Source: Thermoanaerobaculia bacterium
GTDB taxonomy: Bacteria; Acidobacteriota; Thermoanaerobaculia; Multivoradales; Multivoraceae
Direction of reading: 5' to 3'
Length of the DNA: 64,000 bases
Assembly (NCBI GenBank): GCA_965116145.1
Contig: OZ220482.1
Coordinates: 1,089,450 to 1,153,449 of the forward strand
Both the position numbers and the translations under genes were made by a program. Below, piece by piece: positions 35,907 through 57,492 of the stretch (its first letter is position 1; every line of letters starts with the position of its first letter). The notes beneath the pieces were generated by a model. That model had not been told where the DNA came from. It worked only from the letters and a program-made list of their open reading frames with translations, and did no database searches.

Positions 35907-36043
35907 CCGCGGAACAGTACCCTCTGGCAGTCCCTGGAGATAGTCGCACGGCATCGGTCAGGGCGACCCGTACTCTCGCCTCGGACTGCCGGGACCCAGG
36001 CCGGCAGGCGGCATCGGCACGCATAGGATCGGGCGGGAAACGG

Positions 36044-37747
36044 ATGATTCGACGTTCCAGCAGCGCCGGCCGTATCCGGCGGACCGCTCCGCAGCTCGCG
36101 GCCATGTGCCTGACCGTGTGCCTTCTCGCCGTCGGTTCGACCGCCGTTCCGGCGGCGCAGGACGCGATCGGCGAGAACGGCGAAGGCCGGCCTTCCCTGG
36201 CCCGCATCCTCGCCCATCTGCGCGTGCTGGGCGGCGACGAAATGGAAGGCCGCGGCACCGGCGCCAGGGGCGGCGACCGCGCCGCCGCCTACATCGAGGC
36301 GACGCTCGAGGAACTCGACGTGGAGCCGATCGCCGGCTCCTATCGGCAGGCGGTGCCGATGCACTCGAGCCTGCCGCTGCCGTCGAGCCAGCTCACCGTC
36401 CATTCCGAAGGAGACGGCGAGCACGCCCTGGCGCTGTGGGAGGACTACGTCCTGTTCGACACCGGCGCCCAGACCTACCTTCCGCAGCCGACTCCCCTGG
36501 TGTTCGTCGGCTACGGCATCGTCGCACCGGAATACCGCTACAACGACTACCAGGGCCTCGACATGGCCGGCCGGATCGCCGTCTTCCTGGCCGGCGAACC
36601 GGTCTCGGACGACCCCGTCTTCTTCGAAGGCGCGACGGCGACGTTCTACTCCGATCCCGGAATGAAGTTCCGCACCGCGCTCTCGCGCGGGGCCCGCGGA
36701 GCGATCCTGCTGCCCTCGCCGCGGGGAACGCTGTTCACCCGTTGGAACGAAGTCCGCGACGCCTTCGAGACCGAGGACGTCACGCTGCCCTACGGCATCG
36801 CCGGCAGCCTGAACGTCCTGCTCGAGATGCACCAGGCGGAGCGGCTGTTCGACGGCGCCGAAGCCTCCTTCGGAGAGGTCCTGGAACTCGACCGTCGGGG
36901 CGATCTCGGCAGCTTCCCGCTGGCGGTTCGCGTGCGGTTCCACGGCGAGTTCAGGGAGCGTGATTTCGCGGCCCACAACCTGATCGCGCGCCTTCCCGGC
37001 TCGGACCCCCTGCTCAGGGCCGACCACGTGATCGTCAGCGCCCACTACGACCACCTCGGGCTGGGGCGGCCGGTCGACGGCGATGCGATCTACAACGGCG
37101 TCATCGACAACGCCAGCGGCGCCGCGGTGACGCTAGAGCTCGCACGCATCCTGTCGAGCGGTCCGGAACGGCCCCGGCGGTCCATTCTCTTCCTGCTCGT
37201 GACCGGCGAGGAGAAGGGCCTACTCGGTTCCCGCTACTACCGCGACCACCCGGTCGTGCCGCTCCACCGGACGGTGGCGGCGCTGAACATCGACGGCATC
37301 TCCTTCCTCGACACGACAGACGAATTCGTCGGCATCGGCTCGAAGTACTCGACCCTCGGCGACCTGCTCGAGCGGACCCTGGCCTCCCTCGATCTCCGCC
37401 ACAGCGGCGTCCCCGCACCGCTTGCCCTCCGCGAGCCGTTCTACCGTTCCGACCAGCTCGCCTTCGCCCAGGCCGGCATCCCGTCGATCCTGGTCATGGA
37501 GGGACTGGCCTTCCGCAATCTGGATACGGACGAGGGACTGCGACGGTTCGTCGACTGGTCCCTGAAGCGCTACCACACACCCTTCGACGACCTCGAGCAG
37601 CCGCTGCACAGCCCCGCCATCGAGCAGCACGCCGAAGTGCTGCTGGCCTTCGTGCGCTCGGTCGCGAACACGCCGGCGGAGCCCCGCTGGCTGCCCGGAG
37701 CACCGTGGGTCGGAGAACGTCTCCGCACCCTCGCCGAAGGGCGCTGA
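36044..37747 (+). CDS. M28-family metallopeptidase with a PA domain, secreted
   Basis: 567 aa with a signal peptide. M28 motifs HYDHLGLG, NGVIDNASGAA and TGEEKGLLGS. Confidence 0.85.
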   Translation: MIRRSSSAGRIRRTAPQLAAMCLTVCLLAVGSTAVPAAQDAIGENGEGRPSLARILAHLRVLGGDEMEGRGTGARGGDRAAAYIEATLEELDVEPIAGSYRQAVPMHSSLPLPSSQLTVHSEGDGEHALALWEDYVLFDTGAQTYLPQPTPLVFVGYGIVAPEYRYNDYQGLDMAGRIAVFLAGEPVSDDPVFFEGATATFYSDPGMKFRTALSRGARGAILLPSPRGTLFTRWNEVRDAFETEDVTLPYGIAGSLNVLLEMHQAERLFDGAEASFGEVLELDRRGDLGSFPLAVRVRFHGEFRERDFAAHNLIARLPGSDPLLRADHVIVSAHYDHLGLGRPVDGDAIYNGVIDNASGAAVTLELARILSSGPERPRRSILFLLVTGEEKGLLGSRYYRDHPVVPLHRTVAALNIDGISFLDTTDEFVGIGSKYSTLGDLLERTLASLDLRHSGVPAPLALREPFYRSDQLAFAQAGIPSILVMEGLAFRNLDTDEGLRRFVDWSLKRYHTPFDDLEQPLHSPAIEQHAEVLLAFVRSVANTPAEPRWLPGAPWVGERLRTLAEGR

Positions 37748-37769
37748 CCGGGAGGCGGCAAGGTTCGTG

Positions 37770-38609
37770 ATGCGCTACCTGCTGGTCCTGGCGGCGGTCG
37801 TTGCCGTCTACGCCGACGTCGCGGCCGCTCAGCCGGCGGACCGTCAGAACGGCAGCATCCGCATCCGCGGCTCGGACACGATGCTGCTCCTGGTGCAGCG
37901 GTGGTCCGAGGAGTTCATGACCGCGCACCCCGGCATCTCGGTCGAAGCGCGGGGCGGCGGCACGACGAAGGGCCTCAACGCGCTGATCGAAGGCGAAGTC
38001 GACATCGCGTCCGCCTCCCGTCCGCTCAGACCCGACGAAGCGCAGCGCATGCTGGAGCGGCACGGCTCGCTCGGCTTCTCGGTGCTCGCCGCACGCGACG
38101 CCCTGAGCGTCTACGTTCATCCATCGAGCCCGATCCGCAACCTGTCGCTGGAGCAGCTCCGCGTGATCTTCACGGGACGCGTTCAGCGCTGGAGTCAACT
38201 CGGAAGCGAGACGACGCCGCACGACGAGATCCTGGTCATCAACCGCAGCCCGGCTTCGGGCAGCCGACTCTTCTTTCGGGAGCACGTCCTGCTCGGCGCG
38301 AAGTACGTCCGGCGCGCGCGCGTGCGGCCGACGACTGCATCCGTCGCGGCCGCGGTCACGGCAGCGCCCGGCGCGATCGGCTACGGCGGCATCGGTCTCG
38401 CGGAGGGCGTCCGGCTGCTCGAGATCGACGACGTGGAACCGTCTTTCGAGAACGTGCGGAACGGCAGCTACCCGATCTCGCGCTACCTCTACCTCTACGC
38501 GGCCAAGCCGCCCGCGGGGGTCACCAGGAGCTTCATCGACTGGATACTCGGTGACGCCGCCCAGCGCGTCGTCGCCGAGGTCGGCTTCGTACCGCTTCGG
38601 GATCCATAG
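37770..38609 (+). CDS. PstS-like phosphate-binding periplasmic protein (PBP superfamily); no pstCAB genes adjacent
   Basis: Signal peptide, and GSDTMLLLVQRW...GGGTTKGLNAL...GYGGIGLA blocks typical of PstS-family binding proteins. Confidence 0.75.
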   Translation: MRYLLVLAAVVAVYADVAAAQPADRQNGSIRIRGSDTMLLLVQRWSEEFMTAHPGISVEARGGGTTKGLNALIEGEVDIASASRPLRPDEAQRMLERHGSLGFSVLAARDALSVYVHPSSPIRNLSLEQLRVIFTGRVQRWSQLGSETTPHDEILVINRSPASGSRLFFREHVLLGAKYVRRARVRPTTASVAAAVTAAPGAIGYGGIGLAEGVRLLEIDDVEPSFENVRNGSYPISRYLYLYAAKPPAGVTRSFIDWILGDAAQRVVAEVGFVPLRDP

Positions 38610-41472: not shown

Positions 41473-42561
41473 CTACTCGCCGCCGCCGGCAGATGCGAGC
41501 GCATCCGCCTCGAGCAGCCGGGCGCCGCGCATCACGTTGCCCAGCGCGTAGTTGCCTTCGTGGCAGGCGTACTCGAAGACCTTGTTGGGGGTTGACCGCC
41601 ACACGTACTCGCCGCTCCAGGCCGTCTCCCACACGTTCGGATCCTCGACCGTGAAGCCATAGAGCAGATCGCCGTTCGGCAGCCGCCGGAAGCGCTCCAC
41701 CACGTGCAGATCCCGTGTCGCCGAACCGAGAGCCGGCTCATCGACGAAGTTCGTCGTATCGACGACCAGGGTGTCGCCCTCCCACCAGCCGATCGAATCG
41801 CCCATCCACCGGCGCTCGGTGGCCGGAGCATGCTCGCCGTCGATCCGCACGACGCGCGCGTCGTGGACCATCTCGATCAGGATCATGACGTGGTTCCCGG
41901 TCTGCACGATCCGCTTGTGGTTGTTGTAGAGGGCCGGCAGCATCGGGGGGCCGCCGGTCGAACTGAAGCCGAGCAGGCAGCGCTCCGGATGCGGCCGCTG
42001 CTCCACGTTGTCGTAGGGGCCCGAACCGTCCTCGTTCTCCTCGAGCCACCAGGCGGTTCCTGTGTTCTTGTGGCCGAACGCCGCGAACTGGGCCGCCGCA
42101 CGCGCCATGCCGGCGGCGGTCATCTCGGGGTACTGGCCGTTCGGCGGATCGGTGATGATCGAAGTCCGCCACTTGCCGTCGATCCTGACCACGTTGTCGC
42201 CGGGATCCATGTAGAAGGCGTTGTAGCCGCCGCTGCCGCCGGACGCGACCTCGAGCCCGGGATCGAAGATCGGCGCACCGCCGACCGGAGGCGCTTCCCG
42301 GTTCGGGTCGCTGGGCTTGAAGTCCGCCTCGTAGATCTCCGTCTTGCGCCGGGAGATCGCGGCCGCCTCCTCGTCGCTCAGGGTCAGCCGGTCGCCGAAC
42401 TCGCGGGGACGCACGAGGGGCGTCAACGTCGCGGCGTCGTAGGCCCCGGTCAGATCGGGCCGGCCGTCGGACCGCCGCGGAATCTCGTCCTGCGAGACAA
42501 CAACGGCCGGGACCGCCAGAAGAGCCGCCAGGCTCAGGAAGGAAAGACGCTCCAGCTTCAT
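41473..42561 (-). CDS. secreted protein, paralog 1 of an unrecognised family (conserved C-terminal domain with WEGDTLVV and ACHEGNY motifs)
   Basis: The signal peptide MKLERLSFLSLAALLAVPAVVVSQ begins at an internal Met with the SD GGAGG 8 nt upstream; the track ORF 41473..42909 is over-extended. The C-terminal 150 aa are homologous to the C-termini of genes 45467..47305 and 47256..48107. Confidence 0.6.
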   Translation of the reverse strand: MKLERLSFLSLAALLAVPAVVVSQDEIPRRSDGRPDLTGAYDAATLTPLVRPREFGDRLTLSDEEAAAISRRKTEIYEADFKPSDPNREAPPVGGAPIFDPGLEVASGGSGGYNAFYMDPGDNVVRIDGKWRTSIITDPPNGQYPEMTAAGMARAAAQFAAFGHKNTGTAWWLEENEDGSGPYDNVEQRPHPERCLLGFSSTGGPPMLPALYNNHKRIVQTGNHVMILIEMVHDARVVRIDGEHAPATERRWMGDSIGWWEGDTLVVDTTNFVDEPALGSATRDLHVVERFRRLPNGDLLYGFTVEDPNVWETAWSGEYVWRSTPNKVFEYACHEGNYALGNVMRGARLLEADALASAGGGE

Positions 42562-42716
42562 TCCGGCACCTCCTGGTTCCAGGTCGTCAACGCAAGCCTC
42601 CCAAGGGCCGGGAGCTCGCACCGAAAGCACCAGCGTACCAGACCGCCGACCGACGCCGGCCACCGCAAACCGGACCTCGGCCCCGCGCGCAGCGTCGAGT
42701 TCTTCGGCACGAAACA

Positions 42717-42990
42717 CTACTCCTTCGGTTCCTCGAAGAACCGTGCGACCGCCCCGCCGGCGACGATCTCCTTGGCAGCGTAGCGGGTTGCGGTCTTCGG
42801 GTCCTTCCATCTGCCGGCCTGGATGAGCTCGGCAGTGGAGGCGCCCCGGGCGACCAGCGACTGGGCGCTGCCGATGCGCAGCGAGTGTCCGCTGATCCGG
42901 CCCTGACAACCGGCGGCTGTCGCCCGCCGCCGGATGCGCCTGCGGATCCCGCTCTGGCTGAGCGCCGTCTCGCCGACCGCGCCGCCCTTC
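42717..42990 (-). pseudogene. tyrosine recombinase (phage-integrase family) C-terminal fragment
   Basis: Only the last 85 codons of ORF 42717..43451 are integrase-like: GHSLRIGSAQSLVARGASTAELIQAGRWKDPKTATRYAAKEI, containing the HxxR box and the catalytic Tyr. The upstream part is Arg/Pro-rich junk, so this is a remnant. Confidence 0.55.
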
Positions 42991-43647
42991 GAGATGCTCC
43001 CTTGCTTCCCCTGTTCCTGCTCCTCTCCGGAGCTGCCTCCCTGCCCGCCAGCACGTCGCTTTCGTTGCCCGGCATCCCCGACTTCCGGCTGCCGTCGGCA
43101 GGATCGGTCGACACGGTGTCGCCGGCGGCCACGGGCGGCCGGCGCCCCTACACCTACAGCGTCAGCGGCCTGCCGTCCGGGACCGGGACGCGGAGGCGGC
43201 GGCCGACCGCGAGCACCTGGGAGAGCTGGACTGGTAGGGGCCGTCGTGGCCGTGCACGCTCCGAGGCGCTGTCCCCGGCGCTCACGACGAAGAGCTGCTC
43301 GGCATCGACTCTGCCCTCGGACGGAAACGAAGCCAGGCGAGTCACCAGACGGCAGAGACAACAGACGAGAACCGGCTCGGTGTCCCGACGGCTCCAGACT
43401 CGTTCGGCTACCAGCCTGATCCCGCCCTCGTCGGGTGTTCGCCATGGTCACCGAATCACGGCTGTTCGTCTACTGCGATCGTCGACCGGCGGCGGTTCTG
43501 GCGGGAAGCGGGGGATCAACGTGTCGGCCGCCAGGACCTACGTGCTCAGGCTGTCGTTTGACGTGTCGGTAGAGTTGACGGGAACGACCATCGACTTCTG
43601 GTCGATTCGGCCGGCCGGCCGACCGACGAGCAGAAGAACAGGGATGG

Positions 43648-45069
43648 GTGCTGATGCGAACACGACTTGCTGACATGACGTTTTTCTGGCTGCTGGTCAC
43701 CCTCGGTGCGGCGCCTGCTGCCGTGGCAGACGACAACACACTTCAGATGAGCAGGAACAGCTTCATCGACGCCTTTGTGACAGACACGGGACGAGCGGTT
43801 CTGGCGATCCATCCTTCTCCGGCCCCGGAGTCTCCTCATACAACACTCGTTTCCTGGAACGGAGCCGTCGCCAGAACACTCGAGATCGACCTCGACGTGA
43901 AGGCGCTCCGAGAGCTGACCGGCGACAGGCTCATGGTGCGGGGCTTCAAACGAGCGGATGGCCCCGAACCGGACCAGATCCGATGGCCTTGGCCCTTGGC
44001 CTATGGCTTCAGGGTCTATCGAGTGACCGAGTCCGGTTTCAGGCTCGAAGAGGAGTTCGACCTCGAGCCCGAGTGGGTCGAGCCGGGTTGGGTCGAGGTT
44101 TCGCCCGATTTGAGGTTGTGGGTAGGGATGACGGACTTGTATCCTCCGTACGAAGATCGTGTGCCACCTTCCGCTCTGGGGAGACGGTTTGCCTTCGGCA
44201 GCGTCAAGTCGGGCCGTTTGTTGCGGACCATGGATGTCGAGCTCTTCGCGGCGGCTCCGCTCGAGGACGACGTTGTGGCCTTTCGGATTCTGGGCTCGGA
44301 AGGGCCGATCGTACTTGCTTCCTACAGCACCAGCCTCTTCCTGCTGCGCTTCTTCGATGAAGGCGTGGACACGGTGCCGGTCGATCACCTGAGGGCGGCG
44401 GTGGAGCCCAGTGGAGGCGACCTTCGCGTGATCTGGCAAGACGACGAGAACATCCTCTGGGCTCTCGTGTCCAACGAGTGGCTGGCGTACGACCTGTGGA
44501 ATCTCGCGTACGCGTCTTCTGTCCCTCGGGAGCCGTTTCTTCGGCGCAAGGCGGCCGCCGGCCGACCGCATGCTGCCCGCGGCTTCGTTGAAGTGCAGGA
44601 ACGGACTGATGGCGCCTTTCGGGTCCGGCATGTCTGGCAGAGTCCGCAGTTTCCGGACTGGCAGGAAGAGCATCTGTCCGACTGGCAAGTTGGCAAGGCC
44701 CCAAGGAGTCCGATCGTGAGTGCGAACGGCCGCCACCTTCTGATTGTCGATGTCAGTCGTTCAGAAGAACGAGTGGACAGCACGATGGCACGGCGCATCG
44801 GACTGACGCGTGCACCGTCTCGACTGCCGCCGGAGGCTGCGCGGCAGAGAAAGAGCCGGCGGAAGGACCGGGATCGGCTGACGACGCCCACTGATGCGCC
44901 GGTCATCCCGTCACGGCGACAGCCCTCGTCACGGTCCACGCCAGGTCAGGGCTGGCCGCGGTTGTCGTACGGTGCTCCGGTGCCTGACGAACCGGCGAAC
45001 AGGCGGCGGCCGTCTGGCAGGGTGACGTCGCGGCCGTTCGCCCGCGGGGCGCCGTCGATCGCCTGGTAG
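43648..45069 (+). CDS. hypothetical secreted protein in a lower-GC segment; the 3' extent is uncertain
   Basis: Signal peptide MTFFWLLVTLGAAPAAVA. GC of 43.4-44.8 kb is about 58 % versus about 68 % for the flanks. The last 120 codons are Arg/Pro/Ser-rich and overlap the convergent DUF6152-like gene, so the true stop may be earlier, or the gene may be decayed. Confidence 0.35.
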   Translation: MLMRTRLADMTFFWLLVTLGAAPAAVADDNTLQMSRNSFIDAFVTDTGRAVLAIHPSPAPESPHTTLVSWNGAVARTLEIDLDVKALRELTGDRLMVRGFKRADGPEPDQIRWPWPLAYGFRVYRVTESGFRLEEEFDLEPEWVEPGWVEVSPDLRLWVGMTDLYPPYEDRVPPSALGRRFAFGSVKSGRLLRTMDVELFAAAPLEDDVVAFRILGSEGPIVLASYSTSLFLLRFFDEGVDTVPVDHLRAAVEPSGGDLRVIWQDDENILWALVSNEWLAYDLWNLAYASSVPREPFLRRKAAAGRPHAARGFVEVQERTDGAFRVRHVWQSPQFPDWQEEHLSDWQVGKAPRSPIVSANGRHLLIVDVSRSEERVDSTMARRIGLTRAPSRLPPEAARQRKSRRKDRDRLTTPTDAPVIPSRRQPSSRSTPGQGWPRLSYGAPVPDEPANRRRPSGRVTSRPFARGAPSIAW

Positions 45070-45470
45070 CCCTCGACCAGCACCTCGGTGCCCGGCGCGA
45101 CCGAGTCCTTCTTCCAGCCCCGCCGGACCAGGGCGCCCGGCGGGCCGCACTCGACCATCCAGGCCGTCACGGCGCCGTCCTCGTCCGTGACGTCGATGTG
45201 GATCCAGGCATGCGGGTTCACCCACTCGACCTTCGTCACCTTGCCGCGCAGCCGCACCGGCTTCGTTGCGTCGAACTCGGCGGCGAAGGCATGGTGGGCG
45301 GCCGAGGGCCTGGGCGGCGTGAACATCACCAGGCCCAGGGACACGGCGATGACGGAAGCCGGGAGGACAAGGCTGCCGGAGATCTCCACCGTCGGCGCTT
45401 GCCCGGCGCCTTGCGGTCCACGCGCCGGTCGGACGTTGCGCTCGGCGCGCTGCCTGGTTCTCCACTTCAT
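44946..45470 (-). CDS. DUF6152-like small secreted protein
   Basis: An internal Met gives MKWRTRQRAERN..., then a signal/TM segment, then HHAFAAEFDATKPVRLRGKVTKVEWVNPHAWIHIDV, a pattern I recall for DUF6152. The track ORF runs to 45674. Confidence 0.55.
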   Translation of the reverse strand: MKWRTRQRAERNVRPARGPQGAGQAPTVEISGSLVLPASVIAVSLGLVMFTPPRPSAAHHAFAAEFDATKPVRLRGKVTKVEWVNPHAWIHIDVTDEDGAVTAWMVECGPPGALVRRGWKKDSVAPGTEVLVEGYQAIDGAPRANGRDVTLPDGRRLFAGSSGTGAPYDNRGQP

Positions 45471-47305
45471 GGTCTGGCCTCCTGACCGGCGCCCGCATCG
45501 GCCTCCGCCCCGGTAGCGGCCGCGGCGGCCGCAGCCTCCTCGCGGTCGCGGGCCCGGGCGCCGGAGAGGATGTTCGTCATTCCGTAGTTGCCCTCGTGGC
45601 AGGCGTACTCGACGAGCTCGTACTGCTCGTTGTCGAGCTCGAACTCGAAGCGGGCCGTCCAGGGACGGGTCCACACGGTCGGATCGTCGACCGTGAACCG
45701 GTACTCCAGCCGATGCGGACCAAGGCGGGTGTAGCGCTCGGTGAGCTTCAGCTTCTCGCCGGCGCCGCGGTAGGCCGCGCGGCCGTTGAAGTTCGTGACC
45801 TCGACGACCAGGGTGTCACCCTCCCAGCGTCCCTGGGAATCGCCCAGCCACTGCCGGATCCCGGCGCCCAGGGGCTCCCGCGGTGCGGTGGGGATGACCC
45901 GGGTCTCGTGGATCATCTCCTTCTGGATGGCGACGAAGCCGGGACTCTGGCTGATCTGCAGGCCGTTGTTGTAGATGGAGGGCATCATCAGTCCCGGCAG
46001 TCCGCGGGTGATGCAGCGGACGTAGGGTGTCAGGTCTTCGGGCCCGGCGGGGCGGCGGCGCACGTAGTCGCCGAACGAAGCGGCGGCGCTGCGCCGACTC
46101 TCCTGCGCCTCTTCGGTCAGGGGCGGCAGGCGGCCGTCCGGCGGATCGACGACCATCGCCACCTGCCGCGACGGCGCCGACTTGACATAGCCGAGGGTCG
46201 TGTCGCGCCACTCGCGCTCGTAGCCCCAGATGCTCCCCAGGGTGCCCCGCTCGCGGCGAGCGGCCGCCTCCTCGGCGGTCAGTTCCTCCCGATCGGCCAG
46301 CTCTTCCGGCCGCTCCAGCGGAATCCCGTGCGCCTTGTTGCCCGACCACATCCCCTGCAGATCGGGAGCGCCCCAGGGAGTCCGCGGCACGACGTACGGC
46401 TCGGCCAGCGCAACGTCCTCCGGGTCCGCCGCTCGGAACCCGTCGTCGACGCCGCGCCAGCCGGATTCGAGCACCGCCACCCGCACGTTGTCCGGGGCGG
46501 CGATGAAGCCGCGGCGGGCCTCGGAACGCCCGCCGTCGGGCCGCGCCGGATCGCGGGTGAAGCGGACGCCCCGGTCACGCAGGCCGACGGCGGCCGTGTC
46601 GAGGTCGGCGAGTTCGAAGGCCAGATGGTCGATCGCCCGGCCGACGCTCGGCGCCGGATCGCCCTCGGGATGCCGCGAAGCAAACAGCCAGACCTCGCCG
46701 AACCGGAGGCCGTCGAGCGTGCCGCGCAGGGTCTCCGGCACGCCGCCGAGGGCCTCGCGGTACCAGCCGAGGGTCCGCTCCGGGTCCCGTGCGCTCAGGT
46801 GGACGTGATGAAAGCCGGGCGTATCCGGGTCTTCGACCAGCTCGATCCGCGTCCCCCAGGGATCGAAGATCCGGCCGACCCGGAACAGGCCGGGCTCCTC
46901 GCGCAGGGTCGAACCGTCGTCGTAGCGCTGCAGACGGACACCGGAGCCACGCACGCCGACCGCCTCCAGCTCGGCCATCTTCTCCTCCAGATCGGGGAAC
47001 GAGAAGCCGATGTGGTCGATGCCCGTGCCCTGGCTTGAACCCATGATCGGGCCCTGGGTGAACTCGATCACCGCGTTGCCGCAGTCGATCGCCTCGGCGC
47101 GCTCCGCGATCGGCTCGCAGTCCAGATGCCGCTCGTACCACTTGACCGCCTCGCTGCGGGCGGACGTGGTCAGTTGCACGGCGAGGCCGCCGTCAGCCCC
47201 GGCCGGGACCGCCGCCGTCAGCGCCAGCAGCAACGCCGCGGGCACGGCCGGGACGCTACGGATCGCCGTCGGTCGGAGGTTCTTCGCGTCGTCGCAGATG
47301 GCCAT
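45467..47305 (-). CDS. secreted fusion protein: tandem VOC (glyoxalase / bleomycin-resistance / extradiol-dioxygenase) domains plus the paralog-family C-terminal domain (paralog 2)
   Basis: Signal peptide after MAICDD. Two VOC-like repeats (GIDHIGFSFPDLEE...WGTRIELVE and AIDHLAFELADLD...). The C-terminus WLGDSQGRWEGDTLVVEVTNFN...YELVEYACHEGNY is homologous to paralogs 1 and 3. Confidence 0.7.
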   Translation of the reverse strand: MAICDDAKNLRPTAIRSVPAVPAALLLALTAAVPAGADGGLAVQLTTSARSEAVKWYERHLDCEPIAERAEAIDCGNAVIEFTQGPIMGSSQGTGIDHIGFSFPDLEEKMAELEAVGVRGSGVRLQRYDDGSTLREEPGLFRVGRIFDPWGTRIELVEDPDTPGFHHVHLSARDPERTLGWYREALGGVPETLRGTLDGLRFGEVWLFASRHPEGDPAPSVGRAIDHLAFELADLDTAAVGLRDRGVRFTRDPARPDGGRSEARRGFIAAPDNVRVAVLESGWRGVDDGFRAADPEDVALAEPYVVPRTPWGAPDLQGMWSGNKAHGIPLERPEELADREELTAEEAAARRERGTLGSIWGYEREWRDTTLGYVKSAPSRQVAMVVDPPDGRLPPLTEEAQESRRSAAASFGDYVRRRPAGPEDLTPYVRCITRGLPGLMMPSIYNNGLQISQSPGFVAIQKEMIHETRVIPTAPREPLGAGIRQWLGDSQGRWEGDTLVVEVTNFNGRAAYRGAGEKLKLTERYTRLGPHRLEYRFTVDDPTVWTRPWTARFEFELDNEQYELVEYACHEGNYGMTNILSGARARDREEAAAAAAATGAEADAGAGQEARP

Positions 47306-48107
47306 AGAGCAGCTCCTCGGAAAACTCGACACACTTGTACTCCAGCACCCGGACGTTCTGCTCCAGGCGCCGGTAGAGCGGCATGCGGATCGTCCAGGCG
47401 CGGGTGAAGACCTTCGGATCCTCGAGCGTCGCCTCGTAGATCATGGTGTTCGGACCGGTCGGCGTGTAACGCTCGACCACGCGCAACGTGTCGCTCGCGA
47501 AGTTGCCGGCACGGTCCAACCAGCCCTGGCCGTTGAAGCCGGCAGCCTCCACGACCAGGGTGTCTCCCTCCCAGCGGCCGTGCGACCGCCCCATCCAGCT
47601 ATCGATCGGCGCCGGCTCCGGATTCTGCTTGTCCATGTGGATCGTCCGGTTCGCCTCGGCGAAACCGTAGACGACCATGATGTGGGTCGTGCCCTGGAGA
47701 ATCCGGAACGGAAACGGCATGTAGGTCGCGCGCGGCACCCCCGGCAGATAGCACTTCGCCTCCGGGTCCTCGCGCCAGCGGTTCTCGAAATTCTGCCGCT
47801 GCTGCTTGCGGGCCCAGTCCTGATAGGGGATCTCGCCGCCGACAACGACGCCCTGGCCGGGCGGCATCGCGGTGAGCGTTCCGTACTCCGAAGGGCCGGC
47901 GGCGGCGGAATGGCCCTCGAGGTTCCAGTGCGCGGTGTTGATCGCCTGCCAGACACCGTTGATGTCCGGGTTGCCGTCGTGGTGCCGGGGGATCGAGTCG
48001 CCGCTCTGCGCCAGGGACGGCGCGGTGAGCGCCAGAGCCAGGAACAGCGCCGTCAGCAACCGTGGCAGCCGCGCCCCATCCAGTACGTCCTGCAATCGCT
48101 TCCTCAT
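47256..48107 (-). CDS. secreted protein, paralog 3 of the same unrecognised family
   Basis: 283 aa with a signal peptide; ...HIMVVYGFAEANRTIHMD...WMGRSHGRWEGDTLVVEAAGFN...VLEYKCVEF. It shares DG.PD..G.W and C...G.P blocks with paralogs 1 and 2. Confidence 0.65.
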   Translation of the reverse strand: MRKRLQDVLDGARLPRLLTALFLALALTAPSLAQSGDSIPRHHDGNPDINGVWQAINTAHWNLEGHSAAAGPSEYGTLTAMPPGQGVVVGGEIPYQDWARKQQRQNFENRWREDPEAKCYLPGVPRATYMPFPFRILQGTTHIMVVYGFAEANRTIHMDKQNPEPAPIDSWMGRSHGRWEGDTLVVEAAGFNGQGWLDRAGNFASDTLRVVERYTPTGPNTMIYEATLEDPKVFTRAWTIRMPLYRRLEQNVRVLEYKCVEFSEELLYGHLRRREEPPTDGDP

Positions 48108-48245
48108 CGCGGAAGGGTGAACATCGTCGGGTGGATGGACAGCATAGCCCAGCCAAGGCCGGCGCTACCTGCCGGATGCAGGTGGGACTGGACACAGGAC
48201 CCGAATCAGACTAGTCTGATCGACCAGACGGTACTGGAGAAGACG

Positions 48246-48491
48246 ATGACGACGATCGGCGCCTACGAAGCCAAGACCCACCTGCCGCGACTCCTCGACC
48301 GCGTCGGCCTCGGTGAATCCCTGACCATCACCCGACACGGGCGGCCGATTGCCCGGCTGACACCCATCGAGAAGGACGACCGGGAACGCGCCGCCGAGGC
48401 GGCCCGGCGCATCGAAGAGCGGCGCCGGCGGCTCGGACAGGCGACCCTGGCCGAGCTGATCGACTCGATCCACGAAGGTCACCGCTATTGA
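48246..48491 (+). CDS. Phd/YefM-family antitoxin
   Basis: This is the last 82 codons of track ORF 47010..48491. MTTIGAYEAKTHLPRLLDRVGLGESLTITRHGRPIARLTPIE is the classic Phd/YefM N-terminus. Confidence 0.8.
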   Translation: MTTIGAYEAKTHLPRLLDRVGLGESLTITRHGRPIARLTPIEKDDRERAAEAARRIEERRRRLGQATLAELIDSIHEGHRY

Positions 48492-48910
48492 GCGTCCTCG
48501 TTGTCGACAACTCCATCGTGCTCTGCTGGTGTCTGGCGGACGAGGTCGATCCGCTGGCGCAGCACGCACTGCTCCTGACCATCGGGCAGGGCGCGGTCGC
48601 TCCACGGCTCTGGCGGTACGAGCTCTGCAACGCGTTGCTCGTCAACGAGCGGCGGGGGCGCCTGAAGGCCGCCGACACTCGCGCCGCCCTCTTCGACCTC
48701 GATCAGATGCGTATCGAGCTCGACGTCGACCACGACGAGCCGAAGGTCCTCGACCTGGCGCGCAGAGGCGATCTCACCGCGTACGACGCCGCCTACCTCG
48801 AGGTCGCACGGCGCCGCGGCCTGCCGCTGGCGACCCTGGATCAGCGGCTTCGGGATGCCGCCGCCGCGGATGGAACGCCGCTGCTCGACGACGGGCCGGC
48901 AGGGCCATAG
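48488..48910 (+). CDS. vapC: PIN-domain toxin (VapC family)
   Basis: 140 aa. A TTG start overlaps the antitoxin stop (TTGA). VVDNSIVLCW...D...AYDAAYLEVA carries PIN acidic residues. Confidence 0.8.
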   Translation: MSVLVVDNSIVLCWCLADEVDPLAQHALLLTIGQGAVAPRLWRYELCNALLVNERRGRLKAADTRAALFDLDQMRIELDVDHDEPKVLDLARRGDLTAYDAAYLEVARRRGLPLATLDQRLRDAAAADGTPLLDDGPAGP

Positions 48911-48941
48911 CCGCGAGTCAGCGGCGCCACGGGCTGCTACG

Positions 48942-49811
48942 TCATGCGTCGTCCGTCGCTCCGGCCGAGGCAGCGGCTTCGTCCACCACCGGTGTCTGCC
49001 CGGCCCGGCCGCCGCGCTGGCCGCGCAACGCGAGATCGACGCCGACCAGCCGCCGGTTGCCCTCGACCCGGCTGGAGCTGCCGCGGATCTCGCGCAGCAC
49101 CAGGTAGTCGGCAAAGGCGGCCTCGACGTTGGCGCTGTAGCCCATCGCGTCCTGGGCCTTGTTCACCGCGAGCTTGCCCAACCGCAGCACCTCCGGATCG
49201 TTCTCCGCGACCCGCTCGGCGTAGGCCATCGTCTCGCGTTCCAGCTCGTCCTCGCCGCAGACCCGGTTGACGAGACCCAGCTCGCGTGCTTCCTCGGCAT
49301 CGATGAAGCGGCTCTCGAACAGCAGCTCCTTCGCCTTGCGCGGATGGATGTCCCAGGGCACGGTGAACGTCTCGAACAGACTCGCCAGGAAACGGGCGCT
49401 CGGCGCGGCGAAGATCAGGTCCATCGACGCCGCGATCATCCAGCCGCCGAAGATGCAGTAGCCGTGGACCATCGCGATCGTCGGCTTGGGCAGGTTGCGC
49501 CACTTGACCGTATTGTCCAGGTTGTACCAGCGGAACGCTTCGTACCAGTCCAGACCGACCCACTCGGTGAGCCCGCGGGCCTCGATGTCCGCCTGCTGCT
49601 CCGGGGTGCCCAGGTCGTGGCCGGATGAAAAGTGCCTGCCGTCCCCCTTCAGCACGACGACCCGAACGTCGCTGTCGGCCATCGCCCGGTCGAGCTGCCG
49701 ATCAAGATCGTCGAGCAGCTTCCAGCTCTGCGCGTTGTGGTAGCGGGCGCGGTCCAGCGTCAGCACGGCGACCGGCCCGCGCCGCTCGTATCGAACCTCG
49801 TCTGTTGTCAT
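48942..49811 (-). CDS. enoyl-CoA hydratase/isomerase (crotonase) family protein
   Basis: An internal Met gives MTTDEVRYERRGPVAVLTLDRA... with SD support; the track ORF runs to 50024. Oxyanion-hole region FSSGHDLG and the GYCIFGGWMIAASMDLIFAA block. Confidence 0.85.
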   Translation of the reverse strand: MTTDEVRYERRGPVAVLTLDRARYHNAQSWKLLDDLDRQLDRAMADSDVRVVVLKGDGRHFSSGHDLGTPEQQADIEARGLTEWVGLDWYEAFRWYNLDNTVKWRNLPKPTIAMVHGYCIFGGWMIAASMDLIFAAPSARFLASLFETFTVPWDIHPRKAKELLFESRFIDAEEARELGLVNRVCGEDELERETMAYAERVAENDPEVLRLGKLAVNKAQDAMGYSANVEAAFADYLVLREIRGSSSRVEGNRRLVGVDLALRGQRGGRAGQTPVVDEAAASAGATDDA

Positions 49812-50067: not shown

Positions 50068-50460
50068 ATGCGGCGCCGGAGCGACTCGCCCAGGAGCAAC
50101 TCACTGCTTTCCACCGTCAGCGCGCTTGGGCTGACGGTCGCCACGCTGTTCAGCGGAGCGTGGGAAGCGAGCGGGCACGGCCACGACCCGGCCACGGAGA
50201 ATGCGGGTCGGTGCACGGTCGAGTACGACGCCGAGATCGCCAGGTCCCCGAACCGCGCCGTCATCACCAGCGCCGCAGCGCCGCACGACCACTCGTGCCT
50301 CGCCTGCGAGCTCGGACGCTCGAAGACCACGGCCAACGGCGGAGCCGCCGGGCTCAGCCCCCGCGACCGTCTGCCGGCCGCGGAAGGCATCCCGAGCAAG
50401 GGACGCCCGCAGACCGGCGAGCGCTGGCAGCAGACCGCCCGCGGGCCGCCCCGGGTCTGA
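50068..50460 (+). CDS. small putative metal-binding protein, module copy 1 (N-terminal TM/signal; HGHDP, HDHSCLAC motifs)
   Basis: 130 aa, MRRRSDSPRSNSLLSTVSALGLTVATLFSGAWEASGHGHDPATENAGRCTV...HDHSCLACELGRS...RDRLPAAEGIPSKGRPQTGERWQQTARGPPRV. A paralog at 53643..54029 has a near-identical N-terminus and C-terminal tail. Confidence 0.55.
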   Translation: MRRRSDSPRSNSLLSTVSALGLTVATLFSGAWEASGHGHDPATENAGRCTVEYDAEIARSPNRAVITSAAAPHDHSCLACELGRSKTTANGGAAGLSPRDRLPAAEGIPSKGRPQTGERWQQTARGPPRV

Positions 50461-50738
50461 GTCCATAGCACCTCCGATCCCGACCCTGAGCGTCAGTCGC
50501 GCCGGAGTCGGTCGGAAGCCGCCGCGGACAACAGCGCCCCCTTCGTCGGGGGAACACCGACAGAGCCCGTCGCTGGCTCGTCGGCCCGTCGCTGCCAGTC
50601 TGGCTGACAGGCAGGAGTCGCAGGTCGCAAGACCGACGACTGGCTGTCTGTGCCTGGCTGCCAGTGCGGCCGCCAGCAGTCAGCAACCAGCAGCCAGCAC
50701 TTATCGATTCAGACCGAACTACCCAGGAGTTCTCCTAC

Positions 50739-53114
50739 ATGCTCTCCCTTCAGATCAGGCCTTCACATCTCTCGCCTCCGCTCCGCTACCGAGCGGCCGC
50801 GGGCGCCGTTCTCGCCGTCCTGGCTCTTCTTCTCGTTCCACCGGCAGCCAGCGCCCAGGAAACCGGATCCGTCGTCGGCAACCTCGAAACCGACGGCGAG
50901 AGGATCGTCCTCGCCGTGGCGCGGATTCCCGAGCTGGGCATCAGTACCGCGGTCTCAACGGACGGCGCGTTCCGCTTCGACGAGCTGCCGACCGGCGCCT
51001 GGCTAGTCGTCGTCGACGTTCCAGCCGTCGGCACGGCCCAGGGCACGGTGACGGTCACCGGCGGCGCCGAAGCGGCGATCGATCTGGAGATGCGCCATGG
51101 CATGCACTCGGACGAGATCGTCATCACCGCGACCGGCGACCTGCGCCGCGCCTCGGAGCTGGCGACTCCTGTCACCGTGCTGTCGGCCACGGACCTCCAG
51201 TTGCGCCAGGGCGCCACCTTGGGCGAGACGCTCGAAGGTGAACCCGGCGTGGCGTCAACCGCGTTCGTACCCGGCGTCGGGCGGCCCGTCATCCGCGGTC
51301 TGACCGGCGCCCGGGTGCGGGTGCTGGAAGGCGGTATCGACAGCGGCGACACCTCCGCCGCCAGCCCCGACCACGCGGTGACCTTCGAACCGGCGCACGC
51401 CACGAGAATCGAAGTGCTGCGCGGCCCCGCCACGCTCCGCTACGGCTCGGAGGCCATCGGCGGCGTGGTCAACGTGATCGACGGACGGATTCCCGAAGAA
51501 AGGCCGGTCCGGACAGTCCGCGGCACGATCGACCTGCGCGGCGGCTCGGCCGCTGACGAACAGATGGGTGCGGTCCAGCTCACCGGCGGCAGCGGCGACT
51601 GGGCCTGGCACCTCGGCGCCGTCAGCCGGGAGACCGATCCCTACGACATCCCCGGTTTCGCGCGTGTCGAGGAGGATCACGACGACCATGACGACCATGA
51701 CGATCACGACGACGAAGCGGAGAACTCGTTCGGAGTCGTTCCGAACACCGGGCTGACCAACGAGAGCGGACGGTTCGGCTTCACCCGGTTCTTCGGTGAC
51801 CGCGGTTTCATCGGCGCCTCGGTCAGCGGCTTCGACACGAACTACGGAATTCCTCCTGGCGCTCACACCCACGCGCACGAAGAAGATGGCCACGACGACC
51901 ACGACGACCACGAGGACCATGACGATCACGATGACCACGATGACGTCCCGATCCGCATCGACATGAAGCAGCGCCGCGCGGACCTTCGGGCCGAGGCCCT
52001 GCCAACCGGCGGCGTCTTCCAGCGGATCGCGGTTCAGATGGCGGGGACCGACTACGAGCACGTCGAGCTCGAGGGCACGAGAGCCGGCACGCTGTTCTTC
52101 AACGAGTTCTTCGAGACCCGGGTCGAGATGTTCCAGCGCGAGCGCGACCGCAACCGCGGCTCAGTCGGTCTCCAGTACACCGACCGCAACATCTCCGTGT
52201 TCGGCGAGGAGGCGGTCGTGCCCCCCACGCAGTCCCGGGGATGGGCGCTCTTCACCTCCCAGGAGATAGAGGCCGGCCCCGTCCGCTGGCAGTTCGGTGC
52301 GCGCCTGGAGACGCTCGATCACAACCCGACCGGCTCCGCCAGCGACAGGTCGCGCGACGGCGTGTCCGCTTCCGCCGGCCTGGTCTGGGACACCGACTCC
52401 GTCTGGACGCTCGGCGTGTCGGCAGCCCGCTCGGTCCGCATGCCGAGCGCAGAGGAGCTCTACTCCGACGGCGTGCACGCGGCCACCAGCTACTACGAGA
52501 TCGGCGATCCGAACCTGGGCAACGAGGTCGGGACCGGGGTCGACGTGTCGCTGCGAAGAACGGAAGGCCGCCTGACCGGCGTGCTGACCTTCTTCCGCCA
52601 GAACTTCAGCGACTTCATCTACCAGGCCTTCACCGGCGAAGAGAAGCATGGAGCCTCGGTGTTGCGCTCCAACCAGAGGGACGCGACGATGACCGGCGCC
52701 GAGCTCCGGACCCGGATCGAAGTCGTTGATGTCGGCGGGCATCACATGCACGTGGAGCTGCTGGGAGACACGGTCGACGCGGAGATCGACGCCGGCGGCA
52801 ACCTCCCCCGGACCCCGCCGATGGGCTTCGGCGCCGGACTGCACTACCACGGTCATGACTGGCGGGCCGCCGTCGAGGGACGCTGGATCGACAACCAGAA
52901 CGACGTCGCGGAACTCGAAACCCCGACGGAGGGCTATACGATCGTGAACGCCCACGTCGGCCGACGCGTGATCCTTGGCAACCGGATCCTCGACGTGCTC
53001 CTGCGCGGACGCAACCTGACCGACGAGGAAGCCCGCGTCCACACATCGTTCCTGAAGAACTTCGCTCCGCTGCCAGGACGTGACGTAACGCTCTCGGCCC
53101 GTTTCTGGTTCTGA
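50739..53114 (+). CDS. TonB-dependent receptor, module copy 1, with an N-terminal CarboxypepD_reg-like domain and two acidic His/Asp-rich inserts
   Basis: About 791 aa. Signal peptide, plug, barrel, and a C-terminal aromatic terminus SARFWF. Inserts EEDHDDHDDHDDHDDEAEN and HAHEEDGHDDHDDHEDHDDHDDHDDVPIR. Highly similar to 54280..56841. Confidence 0.9.
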   Translation: MLSLQIRPSHLSPPLRYRAAAGAVLAVLALLLVPPAASAQETGSVVGNLETDGERIVLAVARIPELGISTAVSTDGAFRFDELPTGAWLVVVDVPAVGTAQGTVTVTGGAEAAIDLEMRHGMHSDEIVITATGDLRRASELATPVTVLSATDLQLRQGATLGETLEGEPGVASTAFVPGVGRPVIRGLTGARVRVLEGGIDSGDTSAASPDHAVTFEPAHATRIEVLRGPATLRYGSEAIGGVVNVIDGRIPEERPVRTVRGTIDLRGGSAADEQMGAVQLTGGSGDWAWHLGAVSRETDPYDIPGFARVEEDHDDHDDHDDHDDEAENSFGVVPNTGLTNESGRFGFTRFFGDRGFIGASVSGFDTNYGIPPGAHTHAHEEDGHDDHDDHEDHDDHDDHDDVPIRIDMKQRRADLRAEALPTGGVFQRIAVQMAGTDYEHVELEGTRAGTLFFNEFFETRVEMFQRERDRNRGSVGLQYTDRNISVFGEEAVVPPTQSRGWALFTSQEIEAGPVRWQFGARLETLDHNPTGSASDRSRDGVSASAGLVWDTDSVWTLGVSAARSVRMPSAEELYSDGVHAATSYYEIGDPNLGNEVGTGVDVSLRRTEGRLTGVLTFFRQNFSDFIYQAFTGEEKHGASVLRSNQRDATMTGAELRTRIEVVDVGGHHMHVELLGDTVDAEIDAGGNLPRTPPMGFGAGLHYHGHDWRAAVEGRWIDNQNDVAELETPTEGYTIVNAHVGRRVILGNRILDVLLRGRNLTDEEARVHTSFLKNFAPLPGRDVTLSARFWF
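51669..51716 (+). repeat. coding 9-bp (HDD) repeat tract 1 in TBDR copy 1
   Basis: gat cac gac gac cat gac gac cat gac gat cac gac gac: tandem CAY-GAC-GAY units. Confidence 0.8.
51880..51946 (+). repeat. coding (HDD) repeat tract 2 in TBDR copy 1
   Basis: ggc cac gac gac cac gac gac cac gag gac cat gac gat cac gat gac cac gat gac. Confidence 0.8.
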
Positions 53115-53552: not shown

Positions 53553-53642
53553 CAGGCGAGGAGCAACGCAGCCGCGCGATGTTCCTCACGGGTTGCCAGG
53601 CCGCCAGTCACCGTGCAGAAACCTGTCTGCTACTGTCCGCCG

Positions 53643-54029
53643 ATGCGTCGCAGGACGGACTCACTGCTTGCCGCCGTCAACGCGCTTGCGCTGACGGTCG
53701 CCACCCTGTTCACCGGGGCGTGGGACGCGAGCGGGCACGGCCACGACCCGGACGCAGAGAACGCGGGCCGGTGCACGGTCGATCACGAAGGCGGGATCGA
53801 CGAGACCGCCGCGTCCACGAGCCGGGCCGCCATCACCGGGGCCGGAGCGTCGCACGACCACTCTTGCGTGGCCTGCCTGCTCGGCCGCTCCAGGACCACC
53901 GCAGCAGGCAAGGCCGTCGGGCCTGGCCCCCGGGACCGCCTGCCGGCCGCGCAAGGAACCCCGAGCAAGAGCAGCCCGCAGACCGGCGAGCGCTGGCAGC
54001 AGGCCGCCCGCGGGCCGCCCCGGGCCTGA
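53643..54029 (+). CDS. small putative metal-binding protein, module copy 2
   Basis: This is the last 129 codons of track ORF 53139..54029. MRRRTDSLLAAVNALALTVATLFTGAWDASGHGHDPDAENAGRCTVDHEG...HDHSCVACLLGRS...RDRLPAAQGTPSKSSPQTGERWQQAARGPPRA. Confidence 0.55.
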   Translation: MRRRTDSLLAAVNALALTVATLFTGAWDASGHGHDPDAENAGRCTVDHEGGIDETAASTSRAAITGAGASHDHSCVACLLGRSRTTAAGKAVGPGPRDRLPAAQGTPSKSSPQTGERWQQAARGPPRA

Positions 54030-54279
54030 GTCTGCAGGACCTCCGATCCCGGCCCTGAGCGCCAGTCGCACCGGAGCCGGTCGCAGGCCGCCGCGGACAA
54101 CAGCGCCCCTTTGTCGACGCAACACCGACAGAGCCCGTCGCTGCCAGCCTGGCTGACACGCACGAATCGCAGGTCACAAGACCGACGGTTCGTTTCTATG
54201 CGCCTGCTGTCGGCGCGGCTGCCAGCAGCCAGTACCTCCCGCCTTGACTCGGACAGAACTACCCAGGAATTACCTCACC

Positions 54280-57415: not shown

Positions 57416-57492
57416 TGGCGTCCCCAACGGGATTCGAACCCGTGTTGCCAGCTTGAAAGGCTGGAGTCCTGACCTGGCTAGACGATGGGGAC
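57416..57492 (-). tRNA. tRNA-Glu (anticodon TTC)
   Basis: The minus strand reads GTCCCCATCGTCTAGCCAGGTCAGGACTCCAGCCTTTCAAGCTGGCAACACGGGTTCGAATCCCGTTGGGGACGCCA. The cloverleaf is nearly identical to E. coli tRNA-Glu. The anticodon loop is CTTTCAA, and an encoded CCA is present. Confidence 0.9.

Follow-up and report, generated by a model that had tools for sequence, protein, structure and literature searches.

Four consecutive genes on the minus strand of contig OZ220482.1, from a Thermoanaerobaculia bacterium (assembly GCA_965116145.1), very probably form a native operon that has been inherited vertically in this 'Ca. Multivoraceae'-like acidobacterium. We analysed positions 1,089,450 to 1,153,449 of the contig, a stretch of 64,000 nucleotides with a GC content of about 70% that is called the window below and whose own numbering is used throughout. 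From the first gene onward, the operon consists of P3 (47256-48107), P2 (45467-47305), a DUF6152 gene (44946-45470) and P1 (41473-42561). P1, P2 and P3 are paralogues; we refer to genes of the P1 and P2 kind, with or without a fused VOC domain, as the long type and to genes of the P3 kind as the short type. The core of the operon, namely a short-type gene, a long-type gene with or without VOC and a DUF6152 gene, is an old module common to Acidobacteriota, Gammaproteobacteria and Gemmatimonadota. The mobile-element remains that lie among these genes, an integrase remnant with an orphan open reading frame (ORF) on the one hand and a Phd/PIN toxin-antitoxin pair on the other, are two later and independent insertions into intergenic spacers. 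As an explanation of the locus as a whole we favour, with some reserve, an old operon with later insertions that encodes a periplasmic module handling a ligand or a metal.

The first-pass annotation had listed the three paralogues, the VOC fusion, the DUF6152 gene, the integrase fragment, a lower-GC ORF and the Phd/PIN pair, all of which we found again in place or nearly so. From them it had concluded that the entire segment from 41.5 to 48.1 kb was acquired horizontally as an island, with the paralogue family as its cargo and with the toxin-antitoxin pair and the integrase scar as its boundaries, and that the integrase then decayed. These elements do sit among the paralogues, and an integrase fragment next to a foreign-looking ORF is a feature that the window shares with integrase-bounded genomic islands. 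We nevertheless consider the island very improbable, because relatives keep the same gene order without the scar, because the GC content at third codon positions (GC3) of the operon genes is host-like and because the core triplet is kept across phyla. The gene order in relatives had been named beforehand as the observation that would speak against acquisition. To compare it we used orthologue gene-context loci, labelled L006, L007 and so on; L006 and L007 come from ENA metagenome assemblies, and the nearest named genomes to them are Holophagales and 'Candidatus Multivorans' metagenome-assembled genomes of the class Thermoanaerobaculia. In L006, L007 and L008 the order is enoyl-CoA hydratase, P3, P2, DUF6152, P1 and S15 hydrolase; the scar, the orphan ORF and the toxin-antitoxin pair are all missing there, and P1 comes directly after DUF6152 in L006 and L007. 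The S15 gene of L006 encodes a CocE/NonD hydrolase on the opposite strand and is followed by M10-like and AbgT genes. A blastn comparison showed L006 to be collinear with the window from 34.3 to 49.8 kb at 80-89% nucleotide identity, about 85% overall, and the window to contain three additional stretches. The first, 42575-44956, corresponds to a DUF6152-P1 spacer of just 84 bp in L006, and the second, 48057-48985, to 168 bp. The third, 35923-38528 (2.6 kb), lies outside the paralogue locus; it carries an M28 peptidase gene and a gene for a PBP_like_2 periplasmic binding protein, and L006 has a 54-bp spacer in its place.

Composition gave the same picture. The GC3 of P1, P2, P3 and DUF6152 was 0.88-0.93, the same as that of the flanking S15 gene, while the orphan ORF had a GC3 of 0.72; the low GC was limited to the 2.4-kb insert, with values of 0.61-0.64 at 43.3-44.8 kb. 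No tRNA gene was found near the locus, the only one in the window being at 57416, and a search for att-like direct repeats flanking the 2.4-kb insert returned only chance-level matches. Thus for the paralogues and DUF6152 neither absence of the block from relatives, nor deviant composition, nor att or tRNA bounds were found. In contrast to an integrase-bounded island, the foreign DNA that goes with the integrase amounts to about 2.4 kb, sits inside an operon spacer and excludes the paralogues. It also speaks against an island that the integrase scar and the toxin-antitoxin pair occupy different spacers, and that the copy of the toxin-antitoxin pair in L009 lies in yet another.

The first of the two insertions (insertion A, 42575-44956) is about 2.4 kb of lineage-specific DNA between DUF6152 and P1. 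In blastn and MAFFT alignments, homology to L006 ends at 44957 and restarts at 42574, so that the edges of the insertion are the DUF6152 stop and a point about 13 nt upstream of the P1 start; the ribosome-binding site of P1 is therefore intact. No similar DNA was present in any of the loci fetched. Insertion A contains the C-terminal fragment of a tyrosine recombinase pseudogene (42717-42990, minus strand), as had been reported: only profile positions 104-168 of the 172 in PF00589 were matched (E 7.5e-6, 26.3 bits against a cut-off of 27.1 bits). The match is the 3' end of an ORF at 42717-43451 whose upstream part has a non-coding GC pattern, and the fragment falls short of the complete R..K..HxxR..Y catalytic domain plus N-terminal core-binding domain of a tyrosine recombinase. 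The orphan ORF (43648-45069, plus strand) is the lower-GC gene of the earlier description; it is present, but its GC content is 62% and not 58%. It has no stop of its own within the insert and reaches 45069 only by read-through, about 40 codons at 44957-45069 running into DUF6152 antisense, so that its foreign part ends at or before 44956. Since residues 435-473 are encoded by the strand opposite the 3' end of DUF6152, the ORF is truncated or read through, which suggests that its own 3' end was lost on insertion. It had no Pfam match and no relatives among plasmids, viral contigs or metagenome contigs. The second insertion (insertion B, 48057-48985) is about 0.9 kb long and lies between the enoyl-CoA hydratase gene and P3. 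It holds the toxin-antitoxin pair, whose identification was borne out: a Phd/YefM antitoxin gene (48246-48491, plus strand; PF02604 E 6e-12, 45.6 bits against a cut-off of 29.8; also TIGR01552) adjoins, with a 4-nt overlap, a gene for a PIN-domain toxin of the VapC type (48488-48910, plus strand; PF01850 E 6e-9, 36.9 bits against 23.6).

The same spacers have received other DNA in related genomes. A Phd/PIN copy with 81% identity is found in 'Ca. Multivorans thiocomprendens' (L009, 2578-3279), there in the P2-DUF6152 spacer and not between enoyl-CoA hydratase and P3. Further cargo in the operon spacers of relatives (L051 1881-10001, L009 487-8561 and L008 9251-10001) includes an rve transposase, Uma2, a BCCT transporter, McrBC with an AAA_5 ATPase, PIN, a TumE/HVO_A0114 pair and, between DUF6152 and P1, a TonB_C protein. 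The operon spacers, which gather mobile debris, thus appear to be a recurrent insertion hotspot, and the operon itself is the stable backbone. Mobile-element debris within the operon is what gave the core locus its island-like look, an annotation trap.

The module is found far beyond the lineage of the window. Among 80 genome loci retrieved with a profile of the family and selected for a P1-type gene, a short-type gene, a long-type gene and DUF6152 occurred together in 27, in Vicinamibacterales, Bryobacterales, Thermoanaerobaculia, Pseudomonadales, Gemmatimonadales and Longimicrobiales. The order of a P3-type gene, a VOC-containing P2 gene and DUF6152 was observed in Ca. Rariloculus, beside TonB-dependent receptors and a pyrroloquinoline-quinone (PQQ) dehydrogenase, in members of Pseudohongiellaceae and in further long contigs whose flanks are unrelated, and in relatives the P3-type gene stands directly before the long-type gene. 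Pseudohongiella nitratireducens (L081) is a cultured carrier of the barrel proteins. Stronger evidence came from a survey centred on DUF6152, which covered 80 metagenome loci; 66 of these were informative in having at least 400 bp of upstream DNA. A family gene lay directly upstream on the same strand in 56 of the 66 and elsewhere in the locus in 7, leaving 3 with none; the linkage between the family and DUF6152 is near-obligate. In the window 50 nt belong to both P3 and P2, and DUF6152, which has a good Shine-Dalgarno sequence, overlaps P2 in an ATGA; this tight packing suggests translational coupling. Clusters of neighbouring genes were accepted only if confirmed by Pfam, since long antisense ORFs in high-GC DNA contaminate ORF clustering (one such group, 'cluster 1', was an artefact). 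With this restriction, a DUF6644 integral membrane protein of about 186 residues with conserved His was found beside the P3/P1/DUF6152 module in eight loci (L028, L073, L085 and five others) and may be a membrane partner of the module. A protein of about 550 residues (cluster c10; L054, L057 and four other loci) also recurs beside family genes and a TonB-dependent receptor; its N-terminal part contains a CxxCH heme motif, with a weak Haem_bd match, and the protein has several HH, HxH and HxHxH motifs.

The paralogy of the three genes was confirmed by BLASTP (P1-P2 5e-36, 35% identity over 247 residues; P1-P3 1e-16; P2-P3 8e-23), and tblastn found exactly three copies of the family in the window. 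The called-gene entries on the record match our translations of all three: P3, a predicted secreted short-type member of 283 residues, defined by its ORF and by its position relative to the long-type gene in relatives; P2, a long-type member of 612 residues, defined by PF00903 and PF13669, its orthologues and a structural model; and P1, a long-type member of 362 residues without VOC, defined by its ORF, which is the fourth operon gene in the lineage of the window. The genes had been described as sharing a C-terminal domain of about 150 residues. The homology is real, but between P1 and P2 it covers about 320 residues, and the family domain of P2 (residues 300-612; 45467-46408, minus strand) aligns to residues 27-346 of P1. 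The conserved blocks WEGDTLVV, ERY/ERF and Y-x-C-x-E are present as reported; the N-terminal D-G-x-P-D-(L/I)-x-G-x-W block is also there, but it is variable, D-G being W-G in P2 and the final W being Y in P1. In an alignment of 123 members, C195, C333, E187, R236, W260, E289, Y301 and E330 (P1 numbering, which we use for the whole family) were invariant across all three types, that is, short type and long type with and without VOC.

The word 'triplicated', which had been applied to the genes, does not describe their history. They are old paralogues, each type with orthologues of its own, and not the product of local amplification. A recent local triplication was rejected, since the copies are only about 35% identical to one another while type-specific orthologues in other phyla are 60-90% identical. 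Orthologues of P1 are 84-90% identical to it in relatives and, in other phyla, 56-67%; those of P2 are full-length, including VOC, at 63-86%; and homologues of P3, more than 8000 among the matches listed, reach 65-86% in Gammaproteobacteria, Thermoanaerobaculia and other taxa. Elsewhere, genomes contain 3-6 family members, often in tandem. A fourth member in the present organism (P0413), 65% identical to P1, lies outside the window on the same chromosome of this 3.73-Mb genome. Searching with a profile of the three paralogues retrieved 21,899 representatives of 50%-identity clusters at E <=1e-3 and 10,825 at E <=1e-10. The domain had been said to fit no known family, and our searches agree: P1, P3 and the C-terminal half of P2 had no Pfam or NCBIfam match (Pfam was searched with six family members up to E 10), and the family had no match in the PDB by sequence or by profile. 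In Pfam, NCBIfam, the PDB and the searchable literature, nothing so far described corresponds to the barrel family itself or to the three-gene module, whereas the VOC and calycin-like barrel folds individually have precedents. Besides VOC, the family has a second kind of fusion partner, an α/α toroid. It occurs in P0277, a 714-residue protein from the representative search, in which the family domain is combined with an N-terminal domain like the C-terminal part of squalene-hopene cyclase (PF13243, E 2e-10).

The AlphaFold2 model of P1, computed from the 123-sequence alignment, had a predicted local-distance difference test score (pLDDT) of 81.9 and a predicted template-modelling score (pTM) of 0.82. 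Its elements are, in order, a short N-terminal strand that bears the PRxxDGxPDLxG motif, a helical region, eight β-strands in succession (215-323) and a C-terminal helix. The model of P2 (pLDDT 81.5) has the strands of the family domain at 448-557, in the same layout of N-terminal strand motif, helical insert, β-barrel and C-terminal helix. Both paralogue types would share a fold made up of a PRxxDGxPDLxGxW strand motif, a helical insert of variable size and an eight-stranded C-terminal barrel. A Foldseek search of the PDB with the P1 model gave weak matches only, all of them to barrels of the FABP/CRABP/NanoLuc type (CRABP2, FABPs and NanoLuc; E ~1e-3, TMt 0.45-0.51), and we describe the barrel as weakly FABP/calycin-like. 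The likeness includes the C-terminal antiparallel β-barrel, a strand at the N-terminus after which a helical 'lid' is inserted, and an Arg and a Tyr, both invariant, which may be compared with the FABP carboxylate clamp. In contrast to FABP and CRABP, the family has no sequence similarity to the Pfam lipocalin/FABP models, and no Pfam match or PDB match by sequence or profile places it among the calycins; its members are predicted to be secreted or periplasmic, are about 280-360 residues long, contain large helical inserts and a pair of conserved Cys, and are encoded, in two paralogue types, beside DUF6152 in one operon. C195 and C333 probably form a disulfide. E187, R236, E289, Y301 and E330 may line the barrel and probably make up a single shared site for binding or catalysis, because polar residues constant across so large a family point to a single site rather than to carriers of varied ligands. 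The barrel may enclose a FABP-like ligand cavity containing an Arg/Tyr/Glu site. The earlier suggestion of a small periplasmic ligand, bound or processed by the conserved domain, is compatible with the modelled barrel and the old VOC fusion.

As the first-pass annotation had stated, the N-terminal part of P2 consists of two VOC repeats (PF00903 E 2.9e-14, 53.9 bits against a cut-off of 20.6 bits, in two stretches). This di-domain (residues 40-285; 46451-47188, minus strand; delimited by Pfam and Foldseek) belongs to a fusion that is old, the VOC-barrel combination being conserved at at least 63% identity over the full length. The best superpositions of the model were on two-domain VOC metalloenzymes, namely single-chain two-domain glyoxalase I, GLOD4, Bacillus metalloproteins (1zsw among the matches) and PcpA (E 3e-12 to 8e-9, TMt 0.5-0.67), with maize glyoxalase I at E 3e-12 and TMt 0.64-0.67. 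Together with FosA, glyoxalase I, GLOD4 and the PcpA-type hydroquinone dioxygenases are the closest known counterparts of the di-domain; catechol extradiol dioxygenases fitted the model only at a root-mean-square deviation of about 18 Å. The second repeat aligns to the His7 and His64 positions of FosA, and the two residues that occupy a FosA-type arrangement in P2, H166 and H227, are conserved in 97/97 and 95/97 orthologues, respectively. The second repeat is therefore predicted to keep a His/His(/Glu) metal site. P2 differs from these enzymes in its signal peptide (judged by eye), in its fusion to the barrel domain and in having no NCBIfam equivalog near the cut-off, those for glyoxalase I, FosA and methylmalonyl-CoA epimerase included: the cut-offs range from 120 to 275 bits, and the best scores were 36.4 bits against 250 for FosA and 22 against 120 for glyoxalase I. 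The use of a glutathione-type cofactor by this VOC domain in the periplasm is doubtful.

The gene between the paralogues had been called DUF6152-like and is indeed a member of PF19649 (E 4.5e-33, 113.7 bits against a cut-off of 27 bits), encoding a small protein that is predicted to be secreted. The ORF was listed as 44946-45353; the ATG at 45470, preceded by AGGAGG and forming the ATGA overlap with the P2 stop, is the most likely start. In all of 18 diverse aligned sequences (18/18) a hydrophobic leader ends in a small-x-A/G site and is followed by an invariant HHAF..EFD; NPHxWIH, RRG, GYQ, ANG and GAP are also invariant. After the predicted cleavage, the mature protein starts with His-His and has four His that are invariant in all sequences. 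The histidine brace is built on this principle of a conserved His1 that follows the signal peptide. For other families it has been shown experimentally that a conserved His at the start of the mature chain of a secreted protein predicts Cu or Ni binding, and this principle led to the Cu- and Ni-binding DUF4198, DUF6702 and 'anglerase' (Ang-1/2) proteins (PMC12537917); DUF6152 is not covered in that work. The invariant His-His at the mature N-terminus suggests that DUF6152 binds metal. In this it follows the logic of the experimentally found Cu/Ni binders and resembles CopC, YcnI and the LPMO histidine brace, with a predicted first mature residue that is an invariant His and with further His invariant. 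It differs from these N-terminal-His metalloproteins in that no sequence relation to them was found (Pfam gave PF19649 only, and the PDB gave no relative) and in that its partner is the barrel family and not a CopD- or HupE-type permease. The searchable literature contained no mention of DUF6152, DUF6644 or 'Candidatus Multivorans'.

How the module might work can be proposed only tentatively. The N-termini of all four products look like Sec signal peptides, and for this reason all four are probably periplasmic. The short and long types would act as a pair that captures a small ligand, which the VOC di-domain fused to P2 would then transform chemically, while DUF6152, through its His-His N-terminus, would supply metal help to ligand binding or processing in the periplasm. 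We regard such a metal-using, ligand-processing complex as a possible mechanism, one to which we give less than even weight. The same restraint applies to the wider proposal that the triplet of P3, P1 or P2, and DUF6152 is a previously unrecognised three-component metallo-system of the periplasm, shared across phyla, in which a FABP-like pair and a His-His subunit would transform or traffic a small molecule by means of a transition metal, VOC having been recruited in one subfamily; we put it forward as a conjecture. Several points weigh against the mechanism. Signal peptides and cleavage sites were assigned by eye. The mature chain of most P2 orthologues starts A|DYHHVHIT, while P2 of the window (residues 40-47, about 47170-47190) reads LAVQLT, and the first putative metal His of the first repeat is Gln in the window clade (15/97 orthologues); the loss of this His, a further difference from the two-domain VOC metalloenzymes, means that one of the two potential metal sites may be degenerate in P2 of the window. 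Since the module exists also without VOC, VOC catalysis cannot be its general mechanism. The genes flanking the module vary and share no common pathway, and no Fur, Zur or CueR-like boxes were found upstream of 40 P3-type genes.

Two other functions can be set beside this mechanism. The module could serve metal trafficking alone, with barrels that bind a metal ion through their invariant carboxylates and DUF6152 as a metallochaperone, in the service of adjacent metal-type TonB-dependent receptors. The four invariant His of DUF6152, His1 included, and the Glu/Asp-rich set of invariant family residues would suit such a role; so would the recurrence of DUF6644 membrane proteins near the module and, in the lineage of the window, the adjacent TonB-dependent receptors, whose loops contain (HDD)n, and the small DUF2946-like His/Cys proteins. 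The receptor link, however, is not kept outside this lineage, no metal-regulator boxes were found upstream of the P3-type genes, a FABP-like barrel with a variable lid and a VOC fusion suits an organic ligand better, and the invariant Arg and Tyr are of the kind usually seen where an anion or a carboxylate is bound. We therefore judge pure metal trafficking unlikely. Somewhat less probable again, in our estimate, is that the proteins are non-catalytic periplasmic carriers which move hydrophobic nutrients or xenobiotics from receptors in the outer membrane to enzymes in the periplasm, with DUF6152 as a structural or docking subunit only. The FABP-like barrel, the many copies per genome with their tandem arrays and the member fused to a terpenoid-cyclase-like α/α toroid domain agree with carriers, as do the common neighbours (TonB-dependent receptors, sulfatases, short-chain dehydrogenases/reductases, esterases and PQQ or GSDH dehydrogenases). 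Yet the same polar residues are invariant over more than 20,000 clusters, which would not be expected of carriers for varied ligands, and a near-obligate DUF6152 partner with invariant His suggests chemistry or metal handling.

Other neighbourhoods of the family were also recorded. Singleton family genes have neighbours without a common theme, among them RecBCD, two-component systems, FGE-sulfatase and GSDH. In the window, two tandem copies of a unit consisting of a gene for a small His/Cys-rich protein followed by one for a TonB-dependent receptor are located at 50068-53114 and about 53640-56841. The small proteins contain the motif GHGHD...HDHSCxAC, and one copy weakly matches DUF2946 (E 0.005, below the cut-off). 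The receptors have (HDD)n repeats in two loops, with up to 9 His per 30 residues; L006 has one such receptor only. The tandem unit looks like a duplicated metal-uptake module of the Cu or Zn type.

Dominant heterotrophs of soil and ocean commonly carry the barrel family, which is very large and strongly conserved and has had no family model, structure, name or literature. Through DUF6152, which is nearly always a neighbour, and through the conserved VOC fusion, three 'hypothetical proteins' become one defined module that can be tested. Should the proposed metallo-system be real, it would add a new class to the known periplasmic enzymes or chaperones, one that Acidobacteriota, Gemmatimonadota and Gammaproteobacteria of soil and sea possess in abundance. 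A module that handles a metal, or that chemically changes a small molecule in the periplasm, would close a gap in the picture of how these groups, abundant and for the most part uncultured, take up or detoxify compounds.

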